Part shown: one piece after another, positions 25,780 through 63,766 of the stretch | Position numbering within the stretch: position 1 is the stretch's first letter | How the letters are laid out: every line of letters starts with the position of its first letter | Virus record (IMG/VR): IMGVR_UViG_3300032087_004763 | Span: 32,001-96,000 of that record | DNA from: a virus | DNA length: 64,000 nucleotides | Direction: 5' to 3' (one strand) | Notes under the pieces: model-generated | What the model was told of the DNA's origin: nothing | The model's database searches: none | Seen by the model: only the letters and a program-made list of their open reading frames with translations | Program-made: the position numbers and the translations under genes

Positions 25780-25791
25780 AATATTCCTTGC

Positions 25792-26349
25792 TTATAATGT
25801 AGTAGTAACAGTAAATGAATCTGTTATTGATCCTGTTGTAGAACTTACGTTCTTTAATTCAAAATAGCTAAATCTAAAAGATGCGCTGAATGTAATATAT
25901 GTATCACCTGAAGAAGTTGACTCAAATTGTATATCACCTAGAGATGTCGGAACACAGTCTAAGTATTTAATCTGTTTAGTTAAATTATTTGTGCTATTTA
26001 GGATATGTAAGGTAATGTCAGCAAAGTGAGGAGGATTTGTTCTGCTTCTTAAAGTTGGAGCCTGCATATCTGTGTCAAGTAGTCTCCTCATCCAATTATA
26101 CATTTCGGCATAACCTTGCATCTCTTCATCTACTATGATGTTAGCAGATAGTTCATTGAAGGTTAACTTATCACCTGGGAATGGAATTGCTTGGATTTTA
26201 CGAAACGGTACCTCAGCCGCAGACATTAACATTCCAGGATGAGTCACTGTTTGACAGAAAAACTCAAGGTTTGGATAGTTAGTACGGTCAAGCACCAGCT
26301 TAAATGACGTGGGCTGTAGGTAGTTAAAATTTTCTGTTAAATTTGCCAT
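25792..26349 (-). CDS. gp3: Tail completion / tube terminator protein
   Basis: NYLQPTSFKL, FFCQTVTHPG, PGDKLTF, FRFSYF. Confidence 0.9.
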   Translation of the reverse strand: MANLTENFNYLQPTSFKLVLDRTNYPNLEFFCQTVTHPGMLMSAAEVPFRKIQAIPFPGDKLTFNELSANIIVDEEMQGYAEMYNWMRRLLDTDMQAPTLRSRTNPPHFADITLHILNSTNNLTKQIKYLDCVPTSLGDIQFESTSSGDTYITFSASFRFSYFELKNVSSTTGSITDSFTVTTTL

Positions 26350-26750
26350 TAGATATATCTATAGTTACTAAATTTAGGATTAGAGCTTTTACAACGATGT
26401 GATATAGTTGTTCTATGAATATTTGTAGCTTCAGATGCTAGCTTTAATGTATCATATATTATACCATCAATTTCTACTGATTGAGCTCTAGGATTATCAG
26501 CACCATTTAAAATTGCAGGTGTTGTTTTATACCATTTTGGTACACCGGTAAACATTTCTTTAGCTTTTTTACCCACAGCTTTTTTTTGTTTATCTGACTG
26601 AGTTTTACCATACATTCCATTTTTTTCGCCACACCATCCATGAATATAACATGGTGTAGCCCCTTCTAAAATTTTTTCTTTAGATGGTGGAATATAATCG
26701 TCCCAACGTAGTCCGGCGATTTGTTGTTTATTTGGTATAAATTCATTCAT
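26349..26750 (-). CDS. NUMOD3 + NUMOD1(HTH) DNA-binding protein, no recognisable nuclease domain
   Basis: GEKNGMYGKTQS, NPRA, IDGIIYDTLKLASEA, TISHRCKS; AT-rich; late promoter at 26756-26763. Confidence 0.7.
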   Translation of the reverse strand: MNEFIPNKQQIAGLRWDDYIPPSKEKILEGATPCYIHGWCGEKNGMYGKTQSDKQKKAVGKKAKEMFTGVPKWYKTTPAILNGADNPRAQSVEIDGIIYDTLKLASEATNIHRTTISHRCKSSNPKFSNYRYI

Positions 26751-26783
26751 ATTACTATTTATACCAAATAAAACTGCTAATAC

Positions 26784-26811
26784 AAAAAAGAAGGGCTTCC
26801 GAAGAAGCCCT
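26784..26811 (-). terminator. Rho-independent terminator after major capsid gene
   Basis: AGGGCTTC-TTCG-GAAGCCCT followed by TCTTTTTT. Confidence 0.9.
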
Positions 26812-26858
26812 CAATTATCAAAGGAGAAACATTATTATTATAATGGTATCTATCAGAC

Positions 26859-28238
26859 TTACGCGAGGATGTTATCCACTCTGAAAATGCGATAGTACTG
26901 GTTAGTCTTGACTGCAGCAAGACCGTCGGCTGGAGTAGTCCCGACGAATGGGTTTGAAGCCATACCGTAACGAGTCTTGAAGCCGATCTTAGGCTGGAAT
27001 GTATCTTCTCCAACCGCACGTACCATTGTTAATGGAACGTATGGGCAGTAGAACAGACCAGAGTCATACGGGTTAGTACCCTTATAACCAACTGTGACAT
27101 AGTCTGTAGTTGAGAACGGATCAATGTACACACGTGTACGTCCATTCAGAACACCAGCGAATGTGTTACCAGTGTCGTCAACGTTCAAGTTAGTTGACAT
27201 AGCTGGTGAGTAGTCGAGCATGCCAGAAGCAGCGAGTGCACTTGCAACGTCTGATGAACAGATGATGAAGTTACCCTTACCTCTACGAGTCTCTTTAGCG
27301 ATTGTGTTAGCTTCTCTTTCGATCTGCACAATCAGACCCTTGAACTTCTCAACTGACCAACGGCCATCAGCGTCGAGTGACAAGTTAAAGATACCCTTGG
27401 TATCAATACCGTCTTGACGAGCACCGAACTTAGCCTGTGAGTTAATCGTACGAATAACTTCACGGTTGATCTCAGCAAGAATCTCTGTAGACAGAATGTT
27501 TGCAAGCTCTGTCTCAGCGTCAAGACCATGAATCGCTTTCAAGTCTTGAGCCAATTCTAAGCTGTATTCTGCCTTCAAAGCACGCGAGCGAGCTGTTACT
27601 GTAGCTTTCTCAATCGTGAAGCCCATCTCAGCAAATGCTTGAGAAGAACCACCAGATCCGAGAGCTTCAGCAGTAGCTGTCGACATACCGGCACTTGCAG
27701 GAGGCGTACCCAATCCACCAGGTACATAAGTTGATTCTGAGTCAAGCAATGAAGAGTCATTGTCTGTATCAGAAACACCAGTTAAGCCAGAAGGACCAGC
27801 TGAACCTTGACCTGTGCCTGAGTCTCCAGAGTACTGAACCAGTGCTTCGTCGAACAGAGCTTCTGTATCTTCAGTTCTTGAACCACCACGTGCAGCACCA
27901 CCAGTAGAAGTCTGATAACGAGACTTCATAGCAAAGATGAGGCCAGTAGGACCAGTCATTGGCTGAACACCACAAACGTCATAAGCCATGAGGTTAGGCA
28001 TAGCACGACGAACGAGTGCAATCAATACTGGGTTCCAGTTAGCAGCATTGCCTGTTGCGTTAGAAGGTGTCTCCGTGAGGTGTTGCTGTTGTGCAGCTTC
28101 CTCATTGAACGCACGCTCTTGGTTTTCTAATACCGCAGCTGTTACAGCTTTACGGTGGCTATCTGTGATCGATCCAGCTGTCTCGTTGTCGAGAACCGGT
28201 GACCACTTTTCGATCAAACGATCGTATGATTCCATCAT
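26859..28238 (-). CDS. gp23: Major capsid protein
   Basis: KWSPVLD, LVRRAMPNL, VQPMTGPTGLIF, ELAQDLKAIHGLDAE, FQPKIGFKTRYG. Confidence 0.98.
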   Translation of the reverse strand: MMESYDRLIEKWSPVLDNETAGSITDSHRKAVTAAVLENQERAFNEEAAQQQHLTETPSNATGNAANWNPVLIALVRRAMPNLMAYDVCGVQPMTGPTGLIFAMKSRYQTSTGGAARGGSRTEDTEALFDEALVQYSGDSGTGQGSAGPSGLTGVSDTDNDSSLLDSESTYVPGGLGTPPASAGMSTATAEALGSGGSSQAFAEMGFTIEKATVTARSRALKAEYSLELAQDLKAIHGLDAETELANILSTEILAEINREVIRTINSQAKFGARQDGIDTKGIFNLSLDADGRWSVEKFKGLIVQIEREANTIAKETRRGKGNFIICSSDVASALAASGMLDYSPAMSTNLNVDDTGNTFAGVLNGRTRVYIDPFSTTDYVTVGYKGTNPYDSGLFYCPYVPLTMVRAVGEDTFQPKIGFKTRYGMASNPFVGTTPADGLAAVKTNQYYRIFRVDNILA

Positions 28239-29996: not shown

Positions 29997-30202
29997 TACA
30001 TTTTTCCAAACTGTTTTACAAATTGGGCGGCAGCTTTCTCCGCCTCTTTTTGTGTTCTATAAGCATCAAGTCTATCACCATCGACATAGGCGATAAACTT
30101 GCCCTTATCTTTATGAATCATTACCGATATCTTGCCTACTTTAAAATCCCGGACATGTTCTCCAGGTGGCATTCTTTTTCTTAGCTCAGTAAATAGTTTC
30201 AT
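29996..30202 (-). CDS. Small prohead-core-region protein (gp68 position)
   Basis: Coupled to gp21; late promoter at 30222-30229. Confidence 0.7.
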   Translation of the reverse strand: MKLFTELRKRMPPGEHVRDFKVGKISVMIHKDKGKFIAYVDGDRLDAYRTQKEAEKAAAQFVKQFGKM

Positions 30203-30234
30203 ATTACTTTCCGTACTTAATTATTTATATGATT

Positions 30235-30564
30235 TTAGTTTTCCACTTCATCATCTTCGTCGTATTCTTCATCATCCAAGTCGACCTCTTCATCTTCATC
30301 GACTTCTAGATCTTCGTCATCGATATCAAGATCAAGTTCTTCGTCCTCAGGCACGACATAATCATCATCTTCTGGTCCACCTTCAGCACTATGACCAGCA
30401 TAGATCCGAGATGCAATACCCATCTTCTCTTGCTCTAATGCAGACTGCATCTTAAGACCAATCTGATCATTAAAGATCTCAGTCGCCGCTGTATAATTTT
30501 GATCTAGTGTTGCTTGAATCAAATCCTCGATTGGATTTGTTGCAACTTCTGTTTCTTCACTCAT
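30235..30564 (-). CDS. Acidic prohead core protein (gp67-like)
   Basis: Very acidic C-terminus; position in head module. Confidence 0.65.
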   Translation of the reverse strand: MSEETEVATNPIEDLIQATLDQNYTAATEIFNDQIGLKMQSALEQEKMGIASRIYAGHSAEGGPEDDDYVVPEDEELDLDIDDEDLEVDEDEEVDLDDEEYDEDDEVEN

Positions 30565-50185: not shown

Positions 50186-50227
50186 CCGGTTCACTCTCCC
50201 CTGTTATGGCGTTTACTTTTATTTATA
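50181..50227 (-). promoter_or_regulatory. Late promoter with hairpin leader pairing over the start codon
   Basis: TATAAATA at 50220-50227; GCCAT...ATGGC stem enclosing GGGGAGAGTGAACC. Confidence 0.5.
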
Positions 50228-50882
50228 TTGGAAACCTTCCACGTAACGCATTATAATTTTGTTTAACTTCATCGGCACTTAACATTCTATTATATGCTGT
50301 AAAATGTAGTAGATCACCTTTTAATTCATTTCCAGAATATGAATTACATATTTTAGTAAAATTTAAACTTGCAGATGAATTGTAACCAGATAGAGTGGTT
50401 GCCTGTACACCATCTCGATAAATGTATCCAACTCCACTTCCATCTTGTCCTGCTACAATATACCTCCATGTATCAGCTGATAATGTAGTACTCATTGACT
50501 TAGATACATCATTGTCTTTAAAAGAAAACGTTGTGCTATTTTGTCCGTATATTCCTATTTCATAATTTGCATTAGCATTATCATCTTTAAATAAAAAATT
50601 CCACCAAGTTTCTTCTTGAGATGATGGTACTCGTACAATAAAAGATATACAAAATCCAGTTGAACCACTCAGACTTGTTGAAGATGACATAGTAATGCCA
50701 TCACCTGTTCCATTTGCTTGAAGACCAGCTGATCGATCAATGGTTGATCCAGTAATTGTGCCAGTTTTGGATCCAACAGTGTCTGTAATAGATGAACCAG
50801 ATTCATAACTTTTTTTACTACTAAAATCAATAGAGAAAGCAATATTATTTTTTGCAATGTTAGGTCCAGAATGTGCAGCCAT
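50223..50882 (-). CDS. LamG/ConA-like lectin domain protein 4
   Basis: YNRMLSADEVKQNYNALRGRF. Confidence 0.8.
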   Translation of the reverse strand: MAAHSGPNIAKNNIAFSIDFSSKKSYESGSSITDTVGSKTGTITGSTIDRSAGLQANGTGDGITMSSSTSLSGSTGFCISFIVRVPSSQEETWWNFLFKDDNANANYEIGIYGQNSTTFSFKDNDVSKSMSTTLSADTWRYIVAGQDGSGVGYIYRDGVQATTLSGYNSSASLNFTKICNSYSGNELKGDLLHFTAYNRMLSADEVKQNYNALRGRFPI

Positions 50883-51586
50883 TAGAGCCCGAACCTCCCT
50901 CGTAATGCATTATAGTTTTGTTTGACTTCGGATGATGATAATGATTTATTGTATAGTCTAATACTATAACACCCCATGTCTGCTGCTTGGCTAGCGGCAA
51001 AACCACCAAGAACTGAATCTTGTTCTTGGTTCAATACCCATCCCTCTGTTGATGTTAAATTATTTGCAGCCGTATAATTGCCACTAAGCACTCCGTTTTT
51101 ATAATAATCTTGTGAACTTCCTTTGTGTACAATAGTTAATAAAAGTTTTTCACCGGCTGAATACGATATATCAGAACCTGAGTTTTTTGATTCATTAAAA
51201 GGAGTAATCTTTGAGTCAGCTTGTCTTGCAATGTAATAATTATTATCTGATGTTGTGGCCATACTATTAAAATATGTTGGAGCAGCAGAGGAAGGAGTGG
51301 CATCAAGTCGAATCCAAAATTCTAATGACCAGTAAGTTCCATCAGATAAATTGTTTAAAGCACTAACAGGTAAAGTAATGTAGTCAGAAGTTTGAGAACC
51401 GTTCATATTAAAACATCCCAAATTTTCTGTTGTGTGTGACACAGAACCAACTATAGATGCATTATATGCATTCCCACTTAAATCACTCCAAGTAGTTCCA
51501 CTGCCTGAATACGATCTCGTATTAGCAGCATCTAAACAAAGTTGCAATCCATCTGTCACAATCCTAGAACCGTGATTCAAGCTCAT
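50882..51586 (-). CDS. LamG/ConA-like lectin domain protein 3
   Basis: LDAANTRSYSGSGTTWSDLSG; YNKSLSSSEVKQNYNA. Confidence 0.85.
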   Translation of the reverse strand: MSLNHGSRIVTDGLQLCLDAANTRSYSGSGTTWSDLSGNAYNASIVGSVSHTTENLGCFNMNGSQTSDYITLPVSALNNLSDGTYWSLEFWIRLDATPSSAAPTYFNSMATTSDNNYYIARQADSKITPFNESKNSGSDISYSAGEKLLLTIVHKGSSQDYYKNGVLSGNYTAANNLTSTEGWVLNQEQDSVLGGFAASQAADMGCYSIRLYNKSLSSSEVKQNYNALRGRFGL

Positions 51587-52358
51587 AGACCAAACCTTCC
51601 TTTCATCGCATTATAATTTTGCTTCAGCTCATCAGCCGACAATCCTCGGCCATACGCAGAGATAGTAGCAATCAACGAATTTAATACGGGTGCTGAACCA
51701 ATATTTCCACTTGTATTCACATTTCTTGATCCAATTGCAATATCATTCGTAGTACCGTTTCTAGTTCTTGTAATACTGCTAAAAGCTCCTGTTTTTATTT
51801 GAACTGCATCGATATATAATCTGGCAGTAGTTCCATCTCCTGTATATGCAATATGCATCCATCGACCAGTGAGATCAGTATTAGAATATCCAGTAACAGT
51901 ATTTGCTCTCATTAAAATATAACCACCACTTGGATTAGAAGACTCAGCAGTTGCTGAAACTGATTCAATTCCTCCTGCAGTATCAATCCATAATCCATTC
52001 GTAGCACCAGAATACCAACCGCTTTGTGCTTTATTAATCAGCGTACCATAATTCCCTAAAGATTGAACATACACCCAACCACAAAGAGTAAAGTTAGTTG
52101 ATGAACCAAACACTGCAGATTCAATTTCTGAATCATGAGGTACTGATGCATAACTTCCGCTGTCAAAGTCAAGCGAACCTTTATTGTTTGCATCGAATGA
52201 TGCCAATGGGCTACCTTTAGTAGTCGCATTCCTTCCGTTACCACTTAGATCTGTCCAAGTTGTACCACTACCTGGATATGATCTAGAATTTGCTGCGTCT
52301 AGATGCAACATAAGACTATCAGTTACAATTCTAGAACCGTGATTCAAGCTCATAGACC
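51564..52358. repeat. 28-bp exact direct repeat at LamG gene junctions (51564-51591 and 52331-52358)
   Basis: ctagaaccgtgattcaagctcatagacc in both copies. Confidence 0.9.
51583..52353 (-). CDS. LamG/ConA-like lectin domain protein 2
   Basis: LDAANSRSYPGSGTTW, WMHIAYTGDG, LYID. Confidence 0.85.
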   Translation of the reverse strand: MSLNHGSRIVTDSLMLHLDAANSRSYPGSGTTWTDLSGNGRNATTKGSPLASFDANNKGSLDFDSGSYASVPHDSEIESAVFGSSTNFTLCGWVYVQSLGNYGTLINKAQSGWYSGATNGLWIDTAGGIESVSATAESSNPSGGYILMRANTVTGYSNTDLTGRWMHIAYTGDGTTARLYIDAVQIKTGAFSSITRTRNGTTNDIAIGSRNVNTSGNIGSAPVLNSLIATISAYGRGLSADELKQNYNAMKGRFGL

Positions 52359-53147
52359 GAACCTCGCTTTCTGTGCATTGTAATTCTGTAGAACCTCGTC
52401 AGCTGACAAAGCCTTTCCGTATATCCTGCAGATATCGATATATCCATACCACCCGTTATTAAACTGCACTGTACCCTCAACATTGCTACTAATTGCAAAT
52501 GGTCTAGCGGTATCATCACCGTATGTTGCTTCTGTAAGCGAGGTAGTACCAGTTGTCTTTGCTTCACCGTTGATGTAAAGAACCCTTTTACCTGTTCCAC
52601 CATCATACGTTCCAACAATATGAAACCATTTGTTAAAGTAGTCTGCATCGCTAGTAAAATTAAATCTTGTACCCACGGCTGCATTATTTGGGTTTATTTG
52701 AAATTCAACTCTGTTATGTCCTGGGGTTGCACTACTTGCTCCATCTTTTCTCACAGCAAGCCCTGTATAATCACTGAAATCAGTAGACATAATTCTATAT
52801 AATGATCCGCTGCCATCTCCTAAAGAATACACCCACGCTTCATATGTCAACCTTCCAGTAGTTTCACCTAGATATAAACTTGGATCTTTTGAGATATTGC
52901 TTTCAGGAAAAGCAATCGCAGTAGTTCCACTTTGTGCAAACAGCAAATGTCTTTGGCCAGGGAATGTAGTATCATCTACAGTAGGTGCATTACTTCCTGC
53001 ACCATCACCGAATGTTCCGTGATATCCTTGACCAGACATATCAAAATATGTTACGCCAGATCCAGGATAAGATTTTTTGTTTGCAATGTCAACATGCAAC
53101 ACAAGTTTGTCAAGAACAATTCTATTTGAATTATATACAATCGCCAT
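52350..53147 (-). CDS. LamG/ConA-like lectin domain protein 1
   Basis: TYEAWV, WFHIVGTYDG, LYINGE, ALSADEV. Confidence 0.88.
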   Translation of the reverse strand: MAIVYNSNRIVLDKLVLHVDIANKKSYPGSGVTYFDMSGQGYHGTFGDGAGSNAPTVDDTTFPGQRHLLFAQSGTTAIAFPESNISKDPSLYLGETTGRLTYEAWVYSLGDGSGSLYRIMSTDFSDYTGLAVRKDGASSATPGHNRVEFQINPNNAAVGTRFNFTSDADYFNKWFHIVGTYDGGTGKRVLYINGEAKTTGTTSLTEATYGDDTARPFAISSNVEGTVQFNNGWYGYIDICRIYGKALSADEVLQNYNAQKARFGL

Positions 53148-53149
53148 TC

Positions 53150-56100
53150 TTAGGCCTCAATCAATGTTTCTACAACTTTGTATCTTGTCGATGTCGCACT
53201 TGTACCGGTTGCAAGAAGTCTTACATCTGATCCGCTAATATCAACATCGTATGTTGCAAGATCACTGTCAGTCGTAATCGTACCATACTCAGTCGCAACC
53301 GCGGTTGTTCCATCATGTGTCACGAGTAATTCAGAGATCTGTCTCTTCGTACCTTGTGATGCAGTCACGATAAACTTCGCACCGCAATAGGATGCATGAG
53401 CAAATTCAGCGATCGATGTCTGACTAACAGATGCGACCTCGGCTGAATCACCATCGAGTGTATACGATCCGAATGCACCTATTGTGACAGGAACATCAAT
53501 ATCAAATGAAGATCCAGATAACGTCATCTTCTGACCGTTATTAATTCTGAAATTCATATTCTGGCCACTAGAAGCATTTAACCATACTTGACCACTTCCA
53601 TTCTGTATTAGTGCATAGTCATTTGTGCTATTTTTATCTACATGACTAAATCCGGCAATATCGCTAAAACCCATGTAACCGATATGAGCTCTACCGATAA
53701 CAGCTGAGATATCAGTGTCTGGGTATACCTCAAACTTTTCAGTAGGACTCGTAGTACCGAGACCTAAGTTACCCGCACTTATGTGATTATCAGTGCCGTC
53801 AGTGTAAAATGCTATTTTTTCTACACCCGAGTCATACATGTGGAATCTACCACCATTAGTAGATTTTTCAGCGATTCTTACAATATCATTAGTACTTGAA
53901 TTTGCTTGAATAGATAAACCAGATGAGGTAGAAGATACTGAACTAGATTTTATTGTTAAAGGAGATGTAGGAGCAGTTAAGCCGATACCAACACGATTGT
54001 TTGCTGCATCAACATGTAATGTATTCGTGTCAACCGTGAGATCATTGACAACTGTTAGATCGCCAGAATTACTCAGGATCATTTTGTTACTGTTATTGTG
54101 CTGATTAACAGTACCGAAATTAAAATGTAAAGATCCATCCCCGGCGCCGCCAGTGGTCTTTCTAGCAATACTCCACACATCAGTGTTAGCAGATGTACTA
54201 GCACCTTCAACAAAGTTAATAGAACTTCCCCAAGTACCATCAGATGATGACACGAGATCAAACTGAGCATCTGTTGCTTCTACTACAGCTACACCATAAG
54301 TTGTCGCGACACCGACATTTTGATCTACAATATGGAAGCTTCTCTGTGGTGAAGCCACGTTAATACCAACTTTATTATTAGCAGCATCAACGACTAGTGT
54401 ATTCGTGTCAACCGTGAGATTACCTGATATCGTAGCAGAGTCAGCATTCACAGTACCAGTAACGGTGACACCGTAAGGCGTGGTTTCTAACTTTTTAGCG
54501 GTGCTCTCATATAGTTCAACGCCATTAGTACCACCAAATATTTTGGTGTGATTAATCAGAGCTGTACCTGATTGACCAATTTCTAACGCATTGCTTTGAT
54601 TCCATTCAAGTAATGTTCTAATATATCCGTTATCAGCACCGATAATTCTAGTACCAGTAGTTAATGCTATACCAACATCATTAGCTGTATCAGGGCCCCC
54701 TCCGGCCGGATCATAAGTTACACCACCACTAAGTTCAATAGCGGCTGTACTTTGAATCAATTCACTAGTAGAGAATCCAAGAGAATCCCCAAGAATAACA
54801 TTACCGCCAATACCGAGTTCACCATTAACTGAACCAGCATCACCGATATCTAATCTTGGTGTAGAGTCGGCACTTGGCTGGAATGTGATCATCGCAGACA
54901 TATCACGTGGTGTGCCACCAGTACCGGCATCATACTGACCGATACCTACTCGGTTTCCGTTTGTCAGCATATACATTGCAGTACCGCTCTGCTGACTACG
55001 CATCAATATATTTGGATGCCAACCAGTGTACGCAGCGTTTGGTCTTAATTCTATATTGGTCTGGCCAGGAGTTCTTTCGTATCTCCATGTGCCGGTAAGA
55101 TTACTAGTACTACTAGTGGTGGTTTGAGTAACTATACCTGTAAGATTCAGAGGACCAGTTGATACTGAGTCCGAGACAAGACTACCAGTGACAGTGGCAC
55201 CGTAAGCCGTTGTTTCTAACTTCTTACTATTGTCATGGTATACTTCTACTGCTCCGTCACCTTTACATATGAGGAAGTTTTCAGTACTTCCTGACTTTCG
55301 TAGATATAACCAGTTTCCGCGAATTATAGTTGAGCCGGTTCCATCAATAAAATTAATATTTGACGAATTGTTGTGGTATATTTTTAAATCTTCACCAGCA
55401 CCAAACGTTAACCTATTAAGATCACCTAAATTAATAGAATCAGCTACAAGACTACCAGTAACAGTGACACCACCTTCTGTAGTTTCAAGTCGAGTTACGT
55501 TATCATATCTAAGCTTCACGTCACCATTTGCAGTGAATGATGCCATTTGTTCATTGTCAGCTGGATTCTTAAATAAAATCTGGCTGGTTTTAAAAATTAA
55601 AGAACCGGTTCCACCTTCATCAATGTAGCTATGAGAGCCATTATGATAAATCTGGAGGTCATTAGCATCTCCAAGTTTTATTCTTGCATTATCGGCTAGA
55701 CTAATTGAGTCAGCTATAAGACTACCGGTAACAGTAACGCCATCTGATTCAGTGGTAAGCTTCTCGGTACCGTAGTAATAGAGTCTAACTTTACCTTCAC
55801 TTCCATCAGCCTTAAAATATAAAGCTGTGGAACCAGTACCGTCATCTGTTCTTATACTAACATCTTGATCATTCGCGTTTTGTGTTATCTGCAATTCGCC
55901 AGTGTAACTTCGAATTCTTGAAACACTTCCAGTATGATCAAGTCTTAAATCATTATTGTCACCTAAATTTATTAAACCGTCATCTGGCAAGGTTAGATTT
56001 GTAACAGTTGCAGAGTCAGCTACGAGACTACCAACTACATTTACACCACCTTCTGTTGTCGCAAATCTTTCTACACCGTTATAATAAAGTTCTGCCTCAG

Positions 56101-58180
56101 CATTTTGTCTAACAACTAAACCATTTTTGTTCTCTGCAGCATTCATGATTTGGAATGTATTAGAGAGAACCTTTAGATTACCAGTACCCTGATCATTAAT
56201 ATAACTATTAGACCCATCATGATAAATTTTAAGATCTGAATCAGCACCAAACGTTGCCATTACGTTATCACTAAAATTCAAATTACCAGATGTTTTAGCG
56301 TCTTCTACATTACTTCTTAAAAATCCACTCGATTGAATATTGTCAAGCGTGTCTGCGTCTAATCCGTTACCGGATCCTTCATCAGCAGTTGTTAATACTC
56401 TATTTCCAGAACTAGTGATAGTTCTATTGAAATCAAACTCAGCATTTGAATGATCGTATGTCAGTGATGGAGTGTCTACAATGTTTGACCCACCCCATGT
56501 AATACCACCGCCATTCAGTGCAGAACTATCTGCTGCACTATCTCCAATGACAATGTTCTTGTCGTTAAGAGTAACGGTTGTAGAGTTAATTGTAGTCTGA
56601 GTTCCTTCAACTTGAAGGTTACCAAGAATCTTAACGGTCCCAGTTGCATCACCGATTGCTGCTGGATCAATGATAAACTCTGCAGGACCTCTTACCTGAT
56701 TAAAGGTTGGATTTGCAGATGAGTCAAGTGGTTGAAAGTGAGCTTTTACTTCTGCAGCTGATGGACCGGTGTATGTAAATGCACCAGTTCCGCTATTATA
56801 TGAAAAACTGCCATCACCGCCTGCATCGGTTGCAGAAAACATTCCACGCACATTAGCCGAGTCAATATCGATTGTACGATTAGCAGCAATTGTTCCACCA
56901 CCAGTAAGACCTTTACCAGCAACTACGGATACGGTTGAGTGATCAATGTGTTCATTGGCTACGAATCCAGATAAATTATCGTGAACTATATCACCGTCTG
57001 TTGTAGTGATCTCTCCTGTAGTAGAATTGTATGTAATACCTGTACCACCGGATATGGCATTCTTTGCATCCGAATCAGCACGGGCAGTCGTGTAATAAAG
57101 GTTACTACCTTCCGATAAATTACTGGTTGACTTTGTGGCTAGTCTTACATCAAATGCACTATCAGCCCTAACAGTGGTATAGTAAAGGTTCGTACCCTCT
57201 GGTAAGTTTGAGGTTGACGCATCTCCCAAGTCACTATCAAAATTTGCCTTAGTGTATACTTGTTCGACATCAAACGTAAATTGACCAGTAGCAGAATTGT
57301 AACTTAAATCACCGCCTGCACTTAACGCCCCACGGATCTCCGAGATTCTATCATCTGAGTCATGGAATGTAGTTGCAAAAGAGTTGCCATCTGCAGTATT
57401 GATCGTAAAGACGCCAGTAGCTGAATCGTATGATGTGCTTGACACACCAGCAACATTAACAGTTCCGGCTGAATCAATCTGACCTCGAGCATTAACTGTG
57501 AGGACTGGAACCTTAGACGCTGATCCATAGACAGCTGAGTCAACTCCGGTGTTTGTGATACTTAATGTATTTGATGCGCTATCGAATGTAAGACCAGTTC
57601 CGCCAAGCGCAGTTTCATCAAGAGCCGTATTGAAATCAGAGTCAAAGTTTGCTTTCGAATAAGTTGCTTCGACGTCAATTGAAAACTCACCTGTAGAACT
57701 ATTGTAGGTAATATCACCAGCACCACTGAAGAAGCTTCTGATCTGACTCTGAGATCCAGATAGATCAAACCCAACTGCGGTACCAATAGAATCTGTAACA
57801 GAGAAAGTACCTGACTGATCTTTGATTGCAAGACCGCCAAGGTTCAGAGTACTACCACTTAGATATAAGTCCCTCCATTTTGCTGCAGCGGATCCGAGGT
57901 CATACGTGCTATCAGCCGATGGAATAAGGCTACTTGATATGGTGGTAAAGACTGGTGATGACGTATTTACGAATTTTTGTGACGATGAATCAAACTGAAT
58001 GAAGTCGTTATTTGAGGCGCCTGATATTACTACATCGCTAAGACCATCAAATGAAGATCCGGCTTGCACAACAGATCGAATCGGCGTTCCAACCGTAATA
58101 CTTTTGACAATAGTTGTTCTGTCTGTAGAGGTGACCTTGACCGATCCAATCGTTCTTCCAGATAAGGTAATCTTTGACAT
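53150..58180 (-). CDS. Long tail fibre protein (1676 aa)
   Basis: EGxNLYYT repeats, DLxIYHxG...LETT..GVTVTG repeats, about 27 DSx motifs. Confidence 0.85.
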   Translation of the reverse strand: MSKITLSGRTIGSVKVTSTDRTTIVKSITVGTPIRSVVQAGSSFDGLSDVVISGASNNDFIQFDSSSQKFVNTSSPVFTTISSSLIPSADSTYDLGSAAAKWRDLYLSGSTLNLGGLAIKDQSGTFSVTDSIGTAVGFDLSGSQSQIRSFFSGAGDITYNSSTGEFSIDVEATYSKANFDSDFNTALDETALGGTGLTFDSASNTLSITNTGVDSAVYGSASKVPVLTVNARGQIDSAGTVNVAGVSSTSYDSATGVFTINTADGNSFATTFHDSDDRISEIRGALSAGGDLSYNSATGQFTFDVEQVYTKANFDSDLGDASTSNLPEGTNLYYTTVRADSAFDVRLATKSTSNLSEGSNLYYTTARADSDAKNAISGGTGITYNSTTGEITTTDGDIVHDNLSGFVANEHIDHSTVSVVAGKGLTGGGTIAANRTIDIDSANVRGMFSATDAGGDGSFSYNSGTGAFTYTGPSAAEVKAHFQPLDSSANPTFNQVRGPAEFIIDPAAIGDATGTVKILGNLQVEGTQTTINSTTVTLNDKNIVIGDSAADSSALNGGGITWGGSNIVDTPSLTYDHSNAEFDFNRTITSSGNRVLTTADEGSGNGLDADTLDNIQSSGFLRSNVEDAKTSGNLNFSDNVMATFGADSDLKIYHDGSNSYINDQGTGNLKVLSNTFQIMNAAENKNGLVVRQNAEAELYYNGVERFATTEGGVNVVGSLVADSATVTNLTLPDDGLINLGDNNDLRLDHTGSVSRIRSYTGELQITQNANDQDVSIRTDDGTGSTALYFKADGSEGKVRLYYYGTEKLTTESDGVTVTGSLIADSISLADNARIKLGDANDLQIYHNGSHSYIDEGGTGSLIFKTSQILFKNPADNEQMASFTANGDVKLRYDNVTRLETTEGGVTVTGSLVADSINLGDLNRLTFGAGEDLKIYHNNSSNINFIDGTGSTIIRGNWLYLRKSGSTENFLICKGDGAVEVYHDNSKKLETTAYGATVTGSLVSDSVSTGPLNLTGIVTQTTTSSTSNLTGTWRYERTPGQTNIELRPNAAYTGWHPNILMRSQQSGTAMYMLTNGNRVGIGQYDAGTGGTPRDMSAMITFQPSADSTPRLDIGDAGSVNGELGIGGNVILGDSLGFSTSELIQSTAAIELSGGVTYDPAGGGPDTANDVGIALTTGTRIIGADNGYIRTLLEWNQSNALEIGQSGTALINHTKIFGGTNGVELYESTAKKLETTPYGVTVTGTVNADSATISGNLTVDTNTLVVDAANNKVGINVASPQRSFHIVDQNVGVATTYGVAVVEATDAQFDLVSSSDGTWGSSINFVEGASTSANTDVWSIARKTTGGAGDGSLHFNFGTVNQHNNSNKMILSNSGDLTVVNDLTVDTNTLHVDAANNRVGIGLTAPTSPLTIKSSSVSSTSSGLSIQANSSTNDIVRIAEKSTNGGRFHMYDSGVEKIAFYTDGTDNHISAGNLGLGTTSPTEKFEVYPDTDISAVIGRAHIGYMGFSDIAGFSHVDKNSTNDYALIQNGSGQVWLNASSGQNMNFRINNGQKMTLSGSSFDIDVPVTIGAFGSYTLDGDSAEVASVSQTSIAEFAHASYCGAKFIVTASQGTKRQISELLVTHDGTTAVATEYGTITTDSDLATYDVDISGSDVRLLATGTSATSTRYKVVETLIEA

Positions 58181-58188: not shown

Positions 58189-58542
58189 TCACTTAGTTAC
58201 AGAAGGACTGACTTGGATTCTACCTTCTAAAATCCTTTCTCTGATAGTTGTCGCACTTGAATCTAGATAAGATATCTCTACATCATAAACATATCGACCT
58301 GCTTTTAATGCATCAGTTTGAGTGTTTGTTAGACTCAAAGAAATAATGCCGTCCGTCGGAGGACTTGCAACAATTGCAGTGAATGCAGTTGTGTCAGAAT
58401 CGCCGCTATTGTAGTTCTTCTTCATCTTAGCTGCGACTGAATGATCGGTCAGATTTTTCTTTGCACCTTGAGTGTCGACGCATTCTAATTGTATAGTGAC
58501 GTCTGCACCCTGATCTATGGTGAATTCTTCGTAAGTGGCCAT
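58189..58542 (-). CDS. BppU-like baseplate/fibre-attachment protein
   Basis: Start MATYEEFTIDQGAD; GRYVYDVEI; RILEG. Confidence 0.8.
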   Translation of the reverse strand: MATYEEFTIDQGADVTIQLECVDTQGAKKNLTDHSVAAKMKKNYNSGDSDTTAFTAIVASPPTDGIISLSLTNTQTDALKAGRYVYDVEISYLDSSATTIRERILEGRIQVSPSVTK

Positions 58543-58587
58543 GAAATACCTCGGTGATTTCTTTGTCGGACTTTCGCCCCTGCCTTG

Positions 58588-58615
58588 GATAAATAGACAA
58601 TATAGTTTATTTATA
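58588..58615. promoter_or_regulatory. Overlapping face-to-face late promoters
   Basis: + strand GATAAATA at 58588-58595; - strand TATAAATA at 58608-58615. Confidence 0.55.
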
Positions 58616-58642
58616 ATACTTTGTTTTAGAACGGAGAAATTT

Positions 58643-58927
58643 ATGGCAAGATATATTGTCACATCAAAAGTCATTGGTGATCCAACAACAAATCCTAAAT
58701 TAAGTACCTTTAGTAACGGTCAAGCAACTACTATACTAGGAGAATATGTCGCTGCTGGAAAATTAGAGGTCTTATTTGACACAATTAGTGGTAATGAAAG
58801 AACGATCTCGCTGGCATTTAAGAATAAAACTACTTGCACTGAAGTAAGATCGAAGCTCAAAGCACTTGGCGATTTTCGTAGAACTGATGTCAACTGGGAG
58901 ATTCTCAGTGAAGGATTTGAAAGTTAA
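58643..58927 (+). CDS. Hypothetical protein (94 aa), first gene of inverted operon
   Basis: GGAG SD; start MARYIVTS; TAATG coupling. Confidence 0.75.
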   Translation: MARYIVTSKVIGDPTTNPKLSTFSNGQATTILGEYVAAGKLEVLFDTISGNERTISLAFKNKTTCTEVRSKLKALGDFRRTDVNWEILSEGFES

Positions 58928-59478
58928 TGGAATACTATAAGACTCGCCTTCCTTACAATCAGGAAGAGTTGCAGAATCTATTTGATGAGATAGATGAGCA
59001 ACTGGAGTACATTTACTATGGTAGGAGTAAGAAATCTGGTTTGTTCCAGGGTATTATTCCTGAGTGCGAGATAACTAAAAATATCATGGATGACATTGAA
59101 GGGTCATTACATTGTTCATTTATAAAAGTAAATCCTGGGTGTGATTTGAAAGCGCATACTGATACAAGAGGAGTTGGAATCAACTATCCTGTCCGTGTAC
59201 CCGAGGGAAGCTACAATATACAATACGACGCCGAAGCCGAAGGAACAAGAATCCGCCAAGCTTACATGGGAAGAAGCAAGGAGTCAACAGCACAACTTTT
59301 TCTCAAAGCAAAAGAGATCTCAAGGTTTTATCTTGACCAGCCAACGGTGTTAAATACACATGTTCCTCATGGAGTCACGGGTGGTGATACACAACGAGTC
59401 GTATTGAGTGTTTCAATGAAGCCCGAGTACGATGAGTTTAATGATGTAGTTGAGAGGTTACAGGCAAGTGGATTCTAA
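58927..59478 (+). CDS. 2OG-Fe(II)/AspH-like double-stranded beta-helix oxygenase
   Basis: AHTD (HxD), LNTHVPHGV, RVVLS. Confidence 0.7.
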   Translation: MEYYKTRLPYNQEELQNLFDEIDEQLEYIYYGRSKKSGLFQGIIPECEITKNIMDDIEGSLHCSFIKVNPGCDLKAHTDTRGVGINYPVRVPEGSYNIQYDAEAEGTRIRQAYMGRSKESTAQLFLKAKEISRFYLDQPTVLNTHVPHGVTGGDTQRVVLSVSMKPEYDEFNDVVERLQASGF

Positions 59479-60139
59479 AACACAACAACTAATCGTATTT
59501 TATTCAGTGCAAGTGTTAGCACTCTTTGCACTCGTATCTTTGCAACCAAACTTTATTCTTCTGTTCTTTGGTTGGATCACATTCTGTGGTCTTGCATCTG
59601 CAGTCATTATGCATCGAGGCCTAGCACATCGAACATTTAAAGTAAGTCCGTGGATGACGATACTATCATGTCTTGCGGTACAGGGTTCTCCGTTATGGTG
59701 GATTGCAATTCATCGCAGACATCATGATCACACTGATGGAGACCTCGATGTACATTCACCTAATCACGGAATATTCCATAGCTATATCGGATGGTTACAC
59801 AAGGACGTAAAGATTAATCCACGATATATCAAAGACTATCTAAGAGATTCGACCACTAAAAAAATTGACAAATACTATGTACATATCGTCGCGTTTATGT
59901 TATTATTGTGTTTAGTGTTCCCATCCCTTATTTGGTTCTGGTTAGTTCCTGCAGCCTGGAGTTTCCATCAGGAAGCGATAGTTAACCTGTTCTGTCACTA
60001 CAAAAAGATTCGTAATATCGAGTGGCTGGGTCTTCTCACATGGGGTCAGGCAATCCATAAAAATCATCATGACAAGCAAAACACGTTTCTCTTTGGTAAG
60101 AATGATCCATGCAAAATTTTTACGTGGTTGACAAACTAG
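59468..60139 (+). CDS. Membrane fatty-acid (delta-9-like) desaturase
   Basis: His boxes HRGLAH, HRRHH, HKNHH; DVHSP; TM segments. Confidence 0.92.
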   Translation: MDSKTQQLIVFYSVQVLALFALVSLQPNFILLFFGWITFCGLASAVIMHRGLAHRTFKVSPWMTILSCLAVQGSPLWWIAIHRRHHDHTDGDLDVHSPNHGIFHSYIGWLHKDVKINPRYIKDYLRDSTTKKIDKYYVHIVAFMLLLCLVFPSLIWFWLVPAAWSFHQEAIVNLFCHYKKIRNIEWLGLLTWGQAIHKNHHDKQNTFLFGKNDPCKIFTWLTN

Positions 60140-60609
60140 AACTCCCACTATGGCAAAAAGAGTTTGATGACTTCATTCAGTATCAGCAAGAGAGCGGCCA
60201 CCGACTTGCGAAGAACTATCGATATGATTACTTACAAAGGTCTGATGAGTTAACAATACTTGTAGATGACGACGACCGCATCGCTGGTCTCGCCTGCATG
60301 CTAAAATGGAATGATGTTGCGACCCGAGTAATGTATCGCTGGGCGAGAGACCGAAGAATTGAAAGAACTGACCACGTGTATGGCGATCTATCAAAAGCTA
60401 TATTATCACATCAGCTTCCACTTGTAAACACTCCTTATGCATTTATTGGCCTCGATGGTAATCGTAAAAGGACAAATAAGAAGTGGGCGGATGCTGCAGG
60501 TTGGCAGGTAACAGAGGGAAGAGTACTACCCAAACATCATCAGCATATAGCTTATATTAAACTCAAGGAGACAGATGAACCATTCGCCTGTGAAAGAGCT
60601 TGGCCTTAG
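60109..60609 (+). CDS. Hypothetical protein, GNAT-like fold possible
   Basis: ILVDDDDRIAGLAC..RVMYRW pattern; weak. Confidence 0.45.
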   Translation: MQNFYVVDKLELPLWQKEFDDFIQYQQESGHRLAKNYRYDYLQRSDELTILVDDDDRIAGLACMLKWNDVATRVMYRWARDRRIERTDHVYGDLSKAILSHQLPLVNTPYAFIGLDGNRKRTNKKWADAAGWQVTEGRVLPKHHQHIAYIKLKETDEPFACERAWP

Positions 60610-61015
60610 ATTAATTAATCCACCACCAGCAATCAACTGGAAACGATTTAGATATGAATCTTATGCCTGGGACATTATACGATATCCTACCAACTATCCT
60701 ACTCTCAATGTAAAAAGATATAGACAACATATTGGTATAAGTATTCCAGAGCATAAGGATACAATTGAGTATTGTTCATATAACTGGAAGATTTTAGGTG
60801 ATGAACCAATCGTAATTGATGGTAAAGAATATCACTATGAGTCTGCTTTAGTAGATGTATCACGGCCGCACTCAGTACCGGCGTCAGGTAAGACAAGAGA
60901 GATATTTCGAATATCCTCGGTATCAAAATCCTATGAAGAGATATTAGAGCAACTAAGCTATTTTAAATATGGACAGGAAGTAACATACGAAGAGATGCTT
61001 GAGGCGATGGCATGA
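60575..61015 (+). CDS. 2OG-Fe(II)/AspH-like oxygenase
   Basis: PEHKD, VDVSRPHSV, REIFRIS. Confidence 0.65.
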   Translation: MNHSPVKELGLRLINPPPAINWKRFRYESYAWDIIRYPTNYPTLNVKRYRQHIGISIPEHKDTIEYCSYNWKILGDEPIVIDGKEYHYESALVDVSRPHSVPASGKTREIFRISSVSKSYEEILEQLSYFKYGQEVTYEEMLEAMA

Positions 61016-61476
61016 TTATCGAATTGTTAGAAACCGATCAAGAGATTGATTTAGAATATCTAAGACTTGAATATAAGCATGCGCCAAAGGTAGTAAAGAA
61101 TAATCGTGCGGGTGTTAATCTCAAAGCAGTTGAGGGTGTTGATCCGCTCGAGGCGATGTATGACATCAACGTAGGTGAATATGAGTGGCTCATTAGCGGT
61201 TACACTAAGGAACTAATAGAGTCACTCGGAGAGTTTACTAGATGTAGGTATCTCTCTATTGGACCACAGTTTTGTATGAAGATCCATTCAGATTACAAAG
61301 AGAGATACCATATTCCCATACACACAAACGAATATTGTGGATTTTTTGATAAACATCTAAACACATATAAGATGGAAGTGGGTAAGCTATATCGCCTCAA
61401 CGCTACACACCCGCACTCGGCATTCAATATCGATAGGAATGAATGGAGAACTCATCTCATCCTAGAAAAAGCTTGA
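61012..61476 (+). CDS. Aspartyl/asparaginyl beta-hydroxylase-family protein
   Basis: RCRYL, IHSD, RYHIPIHTN, HPHSAFN, RTHLI. Confidence 0.8.
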   Translation: MIIELLETDQEIDLEYLRLEYKHAPKVVKNNRAGVNLKAVEGVDPLEAMYDINVGEYEWLISGYTKELIESLGEFTRCRYLSIGPQFCMKIHSDYKERYHIPIHTNEYCGFFDKHLNTYKMEVGKLYRLNATHPHSAFNIDRNEWRTHLILEKA

Positions 61477-62157
61477 GTAATGTCTCCAACTATCAGGCCT
61501 ATTCATCATATGAGTGAAATGAACGTATTTAATATCTGGATGAAACTCATCTAAAAATATATAATCATTTCCGGTAACATCGATGTATTGATTTGTGATT
61601 TTACTTTGCCATCTAGCATAGTCAAAAGAATCCATTTGCTCATTACTCATCCATCTTGTAAACCACGCATTTGGCATTAGTTTTAGTTTTAGGTTTTTCT
61701 TTACGTGGTCTTCTACAAAGAACTGCTCACCATTTACAGGGCCTTTTGTAGTACCGTTTTCAATATAGTGCCTTTGCCACTTGTCAGTATTCGACATAAA
61801 CTCATCATAGATATATCGGCAGTCTTGAGGATAGTATTTAAAAAAACCGCCATTGATTTTATAATCGGGAGTTGAATCTCTCCACCATCCTGGCATAGCA
61901 ACAAACTCACCACGTTCGATAGGATATTCAAATATCTTCTTGTAGTCATTCACCAAAAGCACATCGATATCCATAACACAGATTGGTTCATCAATATCGA
62001 GTGACATACCGTACATCTTATTCCATTGTAAGATTACATCATCACGTATCGGTTCGCGAATCCAAATAAACTCATATTCAGGTAGTTTAGATTCTAGATA
62101 AGTTTCGTACTCAGGCCCATATCGATCACCGATTCTAACTGCTACTATCTTCATCAA
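61462..62157 (-). CDS. Nucleotide-diphospho-sugar transferase (GT-A, GT8-like)
   Basis: WNKM, MDIDVLL (DxD), INGG, GEQ, VHFT. Confidence 0.7.
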   Translation of the reverse strand: MMKIVAVRIGDRYGPEYETYLESKLPEYEFIWIREPIRDDVILQWNKMYGMSLDIDEPICVMDIDVLLVNDYKKIFEYPIERGEFVAMPGWWRDSTPDYKINGGFFKYYPQDCRYIYDEFMSNTDKWQRHYIENGTTKGPVNGEQFFVEDHVKKNLKLKLMPNAWFTRWMSNEQMDSFDYARWQSKITNQYIDVTGNDYIFLDEFHPDIKYVHFTHMMNRPDSWRHYSSFF

Positions 62158-63209
62158 CTTACTGCTATAATACCTTCGTCATTTTTCATAGAGCATATTC
62201 TTTTACACTTACTCATTGCTGTAGATTTATCTTCTAATGATTCAAAGAGTAAATAAGAAAACCATTCGCTATTTACTATTTCCTTTAATGATTTGTCTTT
62301 TAGCATAAAGTTTCCATTAAGAAAAGACTTCCATATTCCTGTTGGTTCTACTTCACTGTGTGACCCAAGGTAACAGCATGGATAGACTTGCGTGGTATTT
62401 AATATTTGTAAAGAACCTGCTTCAGCTTTTACACAAGTAATATAATCATAGTCTTCAGCTAAATGTACAGTCCTGTGATCCCTAGTTCTTCTTCTTAGTG
62501 CTTTGGGGTCTCTTCTAAATCTAGGATTAGTAGACTGTTCTAAACTCTCGAGCTCGCCATTTTCATTCTTAAATTCCCATATTGGCCCCTGTTTAAACCT
62601 ATTCGATTCTATAGGAAGTACATCAAAGCATCCATAGTCATTAACCATTTTTACAATGTCGTCAAAATATTTTTCATTGTGTTTGAATATGATCGTTAAA
62701 ACTGTAACTCTAGCTCCACTTAATGCAAAGGACTGTAAATTGTTTAAAACTTTTTTTAAATCAGTTCCTCTTCTATATTTTTCATGCATTTCTTGATTAA
62801 TACCATCAACGTCAAAAGTCACTTTTAATCTATCTGAATCAATACTCCCTAGTTTATACCACCAGTCTTCATCACGCATACTACCATTACTATTCATTGA
62901 AACTGTAGTCAACGAAGAACTTTGAAAGATATATTCAACTATTTCGAGTATATCTTTGCACATCCCTGGATCACCATACGTACCAGAGAAGTGAATATTT
63001 TTGATATGATTTAGATCCTCGACACTAAAATATGATTTAAAATCGTCAATACTCCATGAGTTGATTTCAAACGGTCTCTTAGTAGATTTCCCTAATGTTC
63101 CCCACCTATCAGTCCTGAGACATTGAGGGCATTTAGCATTACAATATGTAGTTGCCTCAACAATGAGAGATAAAGATTTATTTTCGTATGCTTCTGCCCA
63201 AGTCTTCAT
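62154..63209 (-). CDS. Radical SAM enzyme with SPASM/twitch domain
   Basis: CNAKCPQC, GTYGDP, NSNG, YPCC, CKRIC. Confidence 0.9.
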   Translation of the reverse strand: MKTWAEAYENKSLSLIVEATTYCNAKCPQCLRTDRWGTLGKSTKRPFEINSWSIDDFKSYFSVEDLNHIKNIHFSGTYGDPGMCKDILEIVEYIFQSSSLTTVSMNSNGSMRDEDWWYKLGSIDSDRLKVTFDVDGINQEMHEKYRRGTDLKKVLNNLQSFALSGARVTVLTIIFKHNEKYFDDIVKMVNDYGCFDVLPIESNRFKQGPIWEFKNENGELESLEQSTNPRFRRDPKALRRRTRDHRTVHLAEDYDYITCVKAEAGSLQILNTTQVYPCCYLGSHSEVEPTGIWKSFLNGNFMLKDKSLKEIVNSEWFSYLLFESLEDKSTAMSKCKRICSMKNDEGIIAVS

Positions 63210-63766
63210 TTACCTACTACCATGAATCGATTAAATTTTTCTAATTTCAATTCACCAGCATAGTGTATATCAATAAAGTCCAGTTCGTCTAAAAAATCAT
63301 CTAAACTATTTTTACAATTAATGTGTTCATCAATCTCAAAGTAGTTATTTGATTGTAATGTAATCCAGCTTCTATGTTCATTTATTTCCAATATTTTATT
63401 TATGTAATCCTGTTCTACATGCTCACAGCTGGTACATATAACAGAATTAAATAAACCATTTTTCTTCCTAAAGTAGTCTAACATATCATCAGTAGCAAAC
63501 TCAACATCAGGATATAGAATCTTTCCATATTTTTTACAGCCTGGATCTATATCAACAGATCTGGCGTTTCCTAATTTATTCGCTAGATTACCATACCAAC
63601 CACCGAGTATCAAATGATGATCGGCTTCATTTGGAATATGTTCTACCAACCACTCCTTACTTTTCTCTTGGTTTTCATTAACGCTGTTTATGACATCTAA
63701 GATTCTAAATGGATCATCATAATATGCTTTTTTAATTGCCTTGAAAATATTGTCCAAAATCTTCAC
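63206..63766 (-). CDS. Class I SAM-dependent methyltransferase-like protein
   Basis: ILGGWYG, SVDID, ICTSCEH, LQSNNY. Confidence 0.75.
   Translation of the reverse strand: MKILDNIFKAIKKAYYDDPFRILDVINSVNENQEKSKEWLVEHIPNEADHHLILGGWYGNLANKLGNARSVDIDPGCKKYGKILYPDVEFATDDMLDYFRKKNGLFNSVICTSCEHVEQDYINKILEINEHRSWITLQSNNYFEIDEHINCKNSLDDFLDELDFIDIHYAGELKLEKFNRFMVVGK

Follow-up and report, generated by a model that had tools for sequence, protein, structure and literature searches.

The window analyzed here is a stretch of 64,000 nucleotides (nt) of viral DNA, bases 32001-96000 of the 142,381-bp IMG/VR virus record IMGVR_UViG_3300032087_004763. Nearly all of its genes lie on the minus strand, and at 58643-61476 it carries a plus-strand cassette of six open reading frames (ORFs), ORF1 to ORF6, that form one translationally coupled operon. 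The operon is predicted to encode a miniature membrane desaturase together with a hydroxylase of the AspH family, and it is a reduced, strongly diverged variant of a mini-desaturase module that recurs in marine T4-like phages.

Operon structure and predicted enzymes

The six genes, with lengths in amino acids (aa), are as follows.
58643-58927, plus strand: ORF1, 94 aa
58927-59478, plus strand: ORF2, 183 aa
59450-60139, plus strand: ORF3, 229 aa, TTG start
60109-60609, plus strand: ORF4, 166 aa
60575-61015, plus strand: ORF5, 146 aa
61012-61476, plus strand: ORF6, 154 aa

From ORF1 to ORF6, successive genes overlap by 1, 29, 31, 35, and 4 nt, in agreement with the original prediction of six overlapping or coupled plus-strand ORFs at this position. 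An alternative start for ORF3 is the in-frame GTG at 59468, which has GAGAGG upstream. The window contains 92 ORFs of at least 90 aa, and the remaining 12 on the plus strand each overlap a minus-strand ORF of equal or greater length; the ambiguous place is 30132-30455 (plus) versus 30235-30564 (minus). A greedy gene call over the whole record yielded a single further plus-strand ORF in the window, a doubtful 58-aa frame at 10020-10196. ORF1 to ORF6 are therefore the only credible plus-strand genes of the window, as had been claimed for the 64 kb.

Two relatives of ∼90% nucleotide identity to the window, L008 (IMG/VR) and L009 (metagenome), served as the reference set for ratios of nonsynonymous to synonymous substitution rates (dN/dS). 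These ratios were 0.11 to 0.17 for ORF1, 0.04 to 0.05 for ORF2, 0.03 to 0.04 for ORF3, 0.06 to 0.09 for ORF4, and 0.01 to 0.03 for ORF6, with 0.26 for ORF5 (6 synonymous and 6 nonsynonymous changes), and no indels were found in the genes compared. ORF1 to ORF4 and ORF6 are under purifying selection, and the six ORFs are real genes. Near-identical DNA was present in 20 sequencing runs from 9 studies among the matches listed.

ORF3 matched PF00487 at 53.8 bits (cutoff, 29.7; E = 3.1e-14) and the mouse and human SCD1 structures (4ymk and 4zyo, E = 3.7e-10 and 3.2e-9). Its metal ligands are intact, with the His boxes H55x4H60, H88x2H91H92, and H203x2H206H207 plus N179x3H183, and these residues are invariant in 58 to 60 of 60 phage mini-desaturases. 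A hydropathy scan found hydrophobic stretches at residues 11-55 and 139-172, consistent with four transmembrane (TM) helices in a 2+2 layout, and ORF3 is the sole membrane protein among the six products. We firmly assign ORF3, from these matches, as a miniature SCD/Delta9-type His-box membrane di-iron desaturase whose activity is predicted; the desaturase first proposed for this operon was thus confirmed at the level of family. A tblastn search of 50,697 phage records with ORF3 returned nothing but Mosig, a cultured Pelagibacter phage, and two bacterial-looking records, and a DNA search of the same records with the whole cassette gave no match. Searches by tblastn with ORF6, ORF4, the Mosig desaturase, and the Mosig AspH protein recovered Mosig itself and nothing more. 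One record annotated as a phage (L006, CAKLQH020000002.1, “Acinetobacter phage MD-2021a”) has btuB, baeSR, trpC, and ugpQ around a 390-aa desaturase and resembles a bacterial chromosome, not a phage.

Three oxygenases related to AspH and dependent on iron and 2-oxoglutarate (Fe/2OG) had been proposed, and they fared differently. ORF6 matched PF05118 marginally (23.8 bits; cutoff, 22.6; E = 4.6e-5), and its best solved match was Cpz10 (7v4f, E = 2.2e-7), followed by L-proline cis-4-hydroxylase (4p7w, E = 0.015). It carries the metal motif H92-S-D ... H135 and fell within the AspH family of the desaturase modules at E = 4.8e-19 (hhalign, 97.6%), which makes AspH-family Fe/2OG hydroxylase a firm prediction for ORF6. 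Scanning the phage record with PF05118 failed to recover even ORF6 and is hence uninformative.

ORF2 has no Pfam match and is probably an AspH-like Fe/2OG cupin, as indirect profile links suggest. It matched a 202-aa family of the desaturase modules (E = 4.5e-11), the AspH family (4.6e-5), and the M76-like family (2.7e-4), and hhalign connected it to the 202-aa family (80%, 1.4e-5), which in turn connected to AspH (60%, 8.6e-5). All 8 sequences in an alignment share H77, D79, P88, P139, T140, H148, and R157, and an insertion of ∼28 aa separates the HxD residues (H77, D79) from the distal histidine (H148). The AlphaFold2 (AF2) model of ORF2 was of low confidence (predicted local distance difference test score [pLDDT], 38.5), and a search of the PDB with the ORF2-family profile found nothing.

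For ORF5, the third of the proposed oxygenases, family and PDB searches gave no match, and a search for relatives recovered only its own cluster. Its motif, H60-K-D ... P-H99-S-V ... R, makes it perhaps a putative mini-cupin. A language-model protein atlas pointed to AspH and 2OG clusters (0.92), a lead only, and hhalign placed ORF5 in register over the catalytic core at E values of 0.06 to 0.16, which are not significant. Alignments by hhalign of ORF2 and ORF5 to a shallow three-sequence AspH profile were not significant, and pairwise BLASTP among ORF2, ORF5, and ORF6 gave a lone weak match in the HxD region of ORF2 and ORF6 (E = 0.005).

The GNAT-like protein originally seen in the operon was borne out for ORF4 as a fold. 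ORF4 had no Pfam, NCBIfam, or PHROG match and did not match the GNAT family of the desaturase modules. An exhaustive HMMER search of 1.84 billion representatives gave six matches, of which three are real (98%, 48%, and 37% identity); the other three (P0005, P0007, and P0008) were rejected as compositional, being DDDGG-type repeats of giant repeat proteases. The AF2 model (pLDDT, 75.1; predicted template modeling score, 0.71) retrieved GNAT folds throughout the Foldseek matches listed (best, 7.1e-6), and nearly all 50 VIA-align rows were GNAT-superfamily acyl- or acetyltransferases (Z scores of 10.1 to 12.8 over 123 to 149 residues). ORF4 is thus, by structure only, a predicted GNAT-fold protein of a very small family. 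The contigs of three seawater or marine runs break at 59960-60560 into alternative alleles with 4 to 7 differences per 127 nt, and the most polymorphic part of the cassette is the 3' end of the desaturase gene plus the GNAT gene.

ORF1 is a soluble protein with 0 His and 1 Cys. It had no Pfam, PHROG, or NCBIfam match, and its only relatives among 5.8 billion clusters were those at 96 to 97% identity. A weak match (hmmsearch, E = 0.02; hhalign, E = 0.14) to a 95-aa protein, whose gene immediately precedes that of the desaturase at 11 other loci, suggests that ORF1 may be its divergent counterpart. The idea that the 94-aa lead gene encodes a carrier did not hold up: an electron carrier or acyl carrier protein (ACP) was rejected on the His and Cys content, and by eye no ACP-like helical pattern or carrier motif was seen, including the DSL motif that we take to mark an ACP.

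The mini-desaturase module in marine T4-like phages

An IMG/VR scan with an alignment of ORF3 and the desaturase of Mosig, the closest named phage, returned 60 loci. The near-identical L001 was set aside and L026 was left out, so that 58 loci and Mosig gave the 59 loci considered here, which fall into 20 lineages when a cutoff of 90% identity is applied to the desaturase. Apart from one cut copy of 138 aa, the desaturases measure 207 to 240 aa, and they are only 25 to 34% identical. Because many of the 59 loci end at contig ends or at the limit of the 6-kb flank, the family counts below are lower bounds and absences are uncertain. Genes co-directional with the desaturase encode the following families, including a pyridoxal phosphate (PLP) enzyme and S-adenosylmethionine (SAM) methyltransferases.
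TauD: at least 46 of 59 loci, 18 of 20 lineages
HisC/CobD-like PLP enzyme: at least 46 of 59 loci, 17 of 20 lineages
AspH: at least 44 of 59 loci, 18 of 20 lineages
SAM methyltransferase: at least 40 of 59 loci, 15 of 20 lineages
GNAT: at least 22 of 59 loci, 6 of 20 lineages
M76-like: at least 22 of 59 loci, 9 of 20 lineages
Peroxiredoxin: at least 21 of 59 loci, 9 of 20 lineages

Immediately upstream of the desaturase, AspH or the 95-aa protein was found in 25 of the copies counted, and immediately downstream, the PLP enzyme or AspH was found in 44. The PLP enzyme profile matches HisC/CobD-type enzymes (1.4e-4); a sphingolipid-type reading of this enzyme, as a serine palmitoyltransferase, was rejected because the profile fits these and not oxoamine synthases. 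The earlier claim that the genes work together gains from the linkage of AspH to the mini-desaturase in nearly all lineages and loses from the variable accessories.

We defined the module operationally as a 207- to 240-aa SCD-type desaturase gene co-directional with at least one AspH-type oxygenase gene in a T4-like phage; in the window, ORF3 stands in this arrangement with ORF6 (and ORF2). The PLP enzyme, TauD, and SAM methyltransferase are all missing from the window's block, and the loci L017 and L018 also lack all three. These two loci have the same divergent layout as the window, with a tail-fiber-assembly (tfa)-like gene reading away from an AspH gene that is followed by the desaturase. 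Two mini-desaturase genes occur in one block in some loci (L015, L017, L018, L059, and L060), and the L059 and L060 blocks also hold a B12-binding radical SAM enzyme. Searches for related loci with ORF3, ORF6, an ORF4 alignment, P0004, P0006, and an AspH alignment returned near-identical relatives or nothing. Literature searches, which took in listings and passages of articles, returned no published description of a desaturase-oxygenase module.

Four classes of genomic context were scored within the available flanks: tfa-like genes (5 of the 59 loci), Mtd_N genes (5), island genes of the radical SAM, glycosyltransferase family 8 (GT8), or DegT type (25), and replication genes of the UvsX, DnaB, or ThyX type (6). 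None of the four was present at 21 loci. Because the module also lies beside replication genes, these results favor a self-contained metabolic cassette that lands in hypervariable regions and is not tied to fibers.

Genomic setting and control region

The operon is flanked by the following features.
58549-58642, no strand: divergent intergenic region, 94 bp, between the tfa-like gene (minus) and ORF1 (plus)
58588-58595, plus strand: GATAAATA, 47 nt ahead of ORF1
58608-58615, minus strand: TATAAATA, canonical T4-type late motif
58633-58636, plus strand: GGAG, 6 nt ahead of the ORF1 ATG
58189-58548, minus strand: tfa-like gene, 119 aa (phrog_1084, 1.2e-23; phrog_3304, 4.2e-16), divergent from ORF1
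53150-58180, minus strand: fiber gene, 1676 aa, after the tfa-like gene
61462-62157, minus strand: ORF7, GT8-like, in the Glyco_transf_8 family, paralogue of a phrog_1962 glycosyltransferase
62154-63209, minus strand: ORF8, radical SAM/SPASM (Radical_SAM, 5.2e-11; SPASM, 9.6e-5)
63206-63766, minus strand: ORF9, methyltransferase-like

Over the whole record, a minus-strand gene starts no more than 150 nt downstream of 16 of 19 minus-strand TATAAATA sites, versus just 5 of 15 minus-strand VATAAATA variants. The plus strand of the 94-bp region has no canonical TATAAATA ahead of ORF1, only GATAAATA. The region is 97 to 100% identical in L008 and L009, versus 85 to 93% nucleotide identity for the flanking genes. 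This higher conservation than the coding DNA on both sides suggests that it holds dense regulatory signals for both divergent operons. The record has two further plus-strand islands, beyond the window or at its edge (G000 22271-26884 and 114721-118818), and both, unlike the ORF1-ORF6 cassette, have a canonical TATAAATA 6 to 20 nt ahead of a plus-strand gene.

The window lies in the hypervariable “host recognition cluster” (between VrlC and the neck gene gp14) of a pelagimyophage-like virus; this cluster is known from pelagimyophages and cyanomyophages (PMC7029224). On the fiber side, four tandem paralogues of 219 to 265 aa, each with a Laminin_G_3/ConA-like lectin domain, lie at 50223-53147 just downstream of the fiber gene and are probably interchangeable receptor-binding tips. 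Neck, sheath-stabilizer, and terminase genes are found beyond them. On the other side, the enzyme block ORF7 to ORF9 (61462-63766) is convergent with ORF1 to ORF6, and beyond ORF9 are a second glycosyltransferase, more fiber-like genes, a DUF4815 (VrlC-type) protein, and the baseplate genes gp8, gp9/10, gp6, gp25, and gp5.

ORF1 to ORF4, ORF6, and ORF7 are kept in the close relatives, and no homologue of the radical SAM gene ORF8 was found in L008 or L009. A ribosomally synthesized and posttranslationally modified peptide cassette, with a precursor and a radical SAM/SPASM maturase, was dropped as a reading because ORF8 is on the opposite strand and no homologue of it was found in these relatives, which keep ORF1 to ORF4 and ORF6. 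In three of four sequencing runs compared, the contigs have a joint at 61551-61872, within ORF7, by which 320 nt are skipped.

Possible roles and comparison with known systems

The reading that we prefer, while placing it a little short of probable, is that the operon tailors a lipid-type substrate of the host membrane through oxidative and acyl modifications. We infer that the enzymes would share this substrate, most likely a phospholipid, an aminolipid, or a lipid-A-type acyl chain. ORF3, in the host inner membrane, would use O2 and a host electron donor to introduce a double bond into an acyl chain, and the soluble Fe/2OG cupins (ORF6, probably ORF2, and perhaps ORF5) would add hydroxyl groups to the same substrate or to the head group of that substrate. 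The GNAT-fold ORF4 could move an acetyl or acyl group from acyl-coenzyme A (acyl-CoA) to an amine of that substrate, with ORF1 as a small accessory protein. The outcome would be a remodeled envelope of the infected cell, rather than a modified virion.

Several observations weigh against this proposal. The nearest solved relatives of ORF6 act on soluble small molecules, not on lipids (PMC9814697). ORF2, ORF5, and ORF6 each lack a hydrophobic segment that could serve as a membrane anchor. By eye, ORF4 has no canonical Q/RxxGxG/A CoA loop, a motif cited here from general knowledge. No target, lipid A included, was supported by any test run here. ORF1, ORF2, ORF4, and ORF5 have almost no relatives, and the accessory genes differ greatly between lineages. 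In L008, ORF5 has been deleted cleanly and in frame (L008:3000-3040) between the short similar words GTGAAAGAG and GAAGAGATG; a remnant of 14 codons is left, still coupled to ORF6 through ATGA. ORF5, which is retained in L009 and in the contigs of 4 of 4 sequencing runs compared, is dispensable. The variable accessory content, the loss of ORF5, and the near-orphan status of ORF1, ORF2, ORF4, and ORF5 make a single fixed pathway doubtful.

An alternative is a set of co-located but independent auxiliary genes, in which the desaturase alone raises bulk membrane unsaturation, the oxygenases and the GNAT protein have functions unconnected with it, and the operon reflects no more than phage gene packing. 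We consider this explanation unlikely. In its favor, partners vary widely among lineages, and in L008, a 92%-identical relative, ORF5 was deleted with the rest untouched. In addition, the cyanophage desaturases vFAD-I and vFAD-II act alone (PMC5776448), and cyanophages hold many orphan 2OG oxygenases (PMC3037559). Set against it are the tight overlaps between neighbors, the retention of an AspH-type neighbor in 18 of 20 lineages despite the low desaturase identity, and the recurrence of the same families immediately upstream (25 copies) and downstream (44 copies) of the desaturase. The original prediction had named independent occurrence of the genes in relatives, together with an effect of the desaturase alone on bulk phospholipids, as what would speak against joint action, and this was found in half measure, in the loss of ORF5 and in the lack of ORF1-, ORF2-, ORF4-, and ORF5-type genes from most desaturase modules. 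The operon could also tailor a soluble or amphiphilic small molecule in the infected cell, for example, a secondary metabolite of the N-acyl amino type or of some other kind. The best solved matches of ORF6, Cpz10 and a free-proline hydroxylase, point in that direction, as do the fuller modules, which add HisC/CobD-like PLP, TauD, methyltransferase, peroxiredoxin, and GNAT proteins and so resemble a typical tailoring set. However, the desaturase that anchors the operon is an integral membrane protein of the acyl-chain type, the window's block is devoid of PLP, TauD, and methyltransferase genes, and its island showed no core synthase (nonribosomal peptide synthetase, polyketide synthase, or ligase); we give a small-molecule product a low probability.

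A role in tuning host recognition, in which the phage's tail fibers or further proteins of the virion would be acetylated and hydroxylated in the Asp/Asn manner, appears improbable. The archetype of PF05118 hydroxylates proteins, which counts in its favor. So do the highly conserved 94-bp control region common to the operon and the fiber operon, the adjacent tfa-like gene in 5 and Mtd_N protein in 5 of the 59 other loci, and the position of the operon among fiber genes in the host recognition cluster (PMC7029224). However, it is not evident what a membrane desaturase would do to proteins, and the operon has only GATAAATA, not the canonical late motif, ahead of ORF1. The fiber-modification reading, and with it the virion protein or glycan target first suggested, is further weakened because the module adjoins replication genes in some phages (6 of 59 loci); 21 of 59 show no scored context class. 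An LpxO-like lipid A hydroxylase, the other target suggested at the outset, lost ground as well. The defining feature of LpxO is an AspH domain with a membrane anchor, and the three candidate oxygenases have none.

A bolder form of the lipid-tailoring proposal, which we regard as doubtful, is that phages use the mini-desaturase module as a pathway dedicated to making or retailoring one specific envelope lipid or lipo-amino compound while they infect streamlined marine bacteria, which would alter the cell surface, for example, in blocking superinfection or in preparing for lysis or adsorption. Its core would be the desaturase and AspH-type hydroxylases with the 94- to 95-aa protein as a partner, and the window would hold a minimal working set. 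Until now, the desaturases of phages have been interpreted as lone genes for membrane fluidity, and here the desaturase anchors a conserved multienzyme block in at least 21 marine T4-like phage lineages, including a cultured SAR11 phage. If one product is made, phages would be directing lipid or lipo-amine chemistry in host-virus pairs that rank among the most abundant in the ocean, and the window would offer the most compact set of genes for expression and assays. If the genes are independent, the operon is nothing unusual for a hypervariable island that is already known.

Among lipid-modifying enzymes, LpxO and OlsC are hydroxylases, and in the OlsB/OlsC/OlsE aminolipid system, one membrane lipid is modified jointly by an enzyme with an N-acyltransferase fold, an acyl hydroxylase of the AspH family, and a di-iron oxygenase of the membrane. 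ORF2, ORF5, and ORF6 differ from LpxO and OlsC in being unanchored, and ORF4 is a short generic GNAT protein that is not of OlsB size. ORF3 has the His boxes and the 2+2 TM layout of SCD1 (4ymk and 4zyo) in common with these structures, whose solved chains are 318 to 339 residues long; ORF3 is ∼110 residues shorter, with trimmed termini and loops. Cpz10 (7v4f) is a small AspH-family cupin of 182 aa, and the ORF6 match to it spans the HxD..H core. Cpz10 is the beta-hydroxylase of caprazamycin biosynthesis in Streptomyces and acts on a nucleoside intermediate (PMC9814697); nothing connects ORF6 to this substrate.

Among phages, vFAD-I and vFAD-II are active Delta9 lipid desaturases, as demonstrated in yeast ole1 (Roitman et al. 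2017, PMC5776448), and they share with ORF3 a Delta9-type membrane His-box architecture in a phage-encoded protein. They are DesC-like, host-derived, and described as single auxiliary metabolic genes (PMC5776448), whereas ORF3 is a minimal 229-aa form in an operon with oxygenases. The pelagimyophage host recognition cluster contains fibers, glycosyltransferases, and radical SAM cassettes, and AspH is a core gene (Zaragoza-Solas et al. 2020, PMC7029224). The accessible text of that paper does not describe a desaturase-oxygenase block in this island and uses the word “desaturase” once, for freshwater phages.

The closest counterpart is a block in Mosig EXVC030M (MT647606), a marine T4-like phage of the same size class, in which Mosig_00072-00081 are annotated but not interpreted. 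The Mosig order is AspH, desaturase, PLP enzyme, methyltransferase, peroxiredoxin, unknown, TauD, methyltransferase, GNAT, and AspH, and the window, with the order ORF1, ORF2, desaturase, ORF4, ORF5, and ORF6, corresponds to its two end pairs: AspH-desaturase resembles ORF2-ORF3, and GNAT-AspH resembles ORF4-(ORF5)-ORF6. The six middle genes of Mosig (PLP enzyme, two of the methyltransferase family, peroxiredoxin, unknown, and TauD) are missing from the window's block. Both blocks adjoin a tfa-like gene (46% protein identity between the window's gene and Mosig_00070) and fiber genes, with a radical SAM gene on the other side; the Mosig block has the same direction as its fiber genes, whereas the window operon is inverted relative to them. 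Sequence divergence is large: ORF3 is 27% identical to the Mosig desaturase, ORF6 matches the Mosig M72 AspH protein weakly (phmmer, E = 0.0018), and ORF2 and ORF4 have no significant match to their counterparts. In Mosig (L005, 7332-7913 and 9775-10386), the gene annotated as an NADPH-dependent FMN reductase clustered with the methyltransferase family of the module (BLAST, single linkage), and an error in one of the two annotations is possible. Against the island (PMC7029224) and the phage desaturases (PMC5776448) already known from the published text, the window adds a minimal, very divergent variant.

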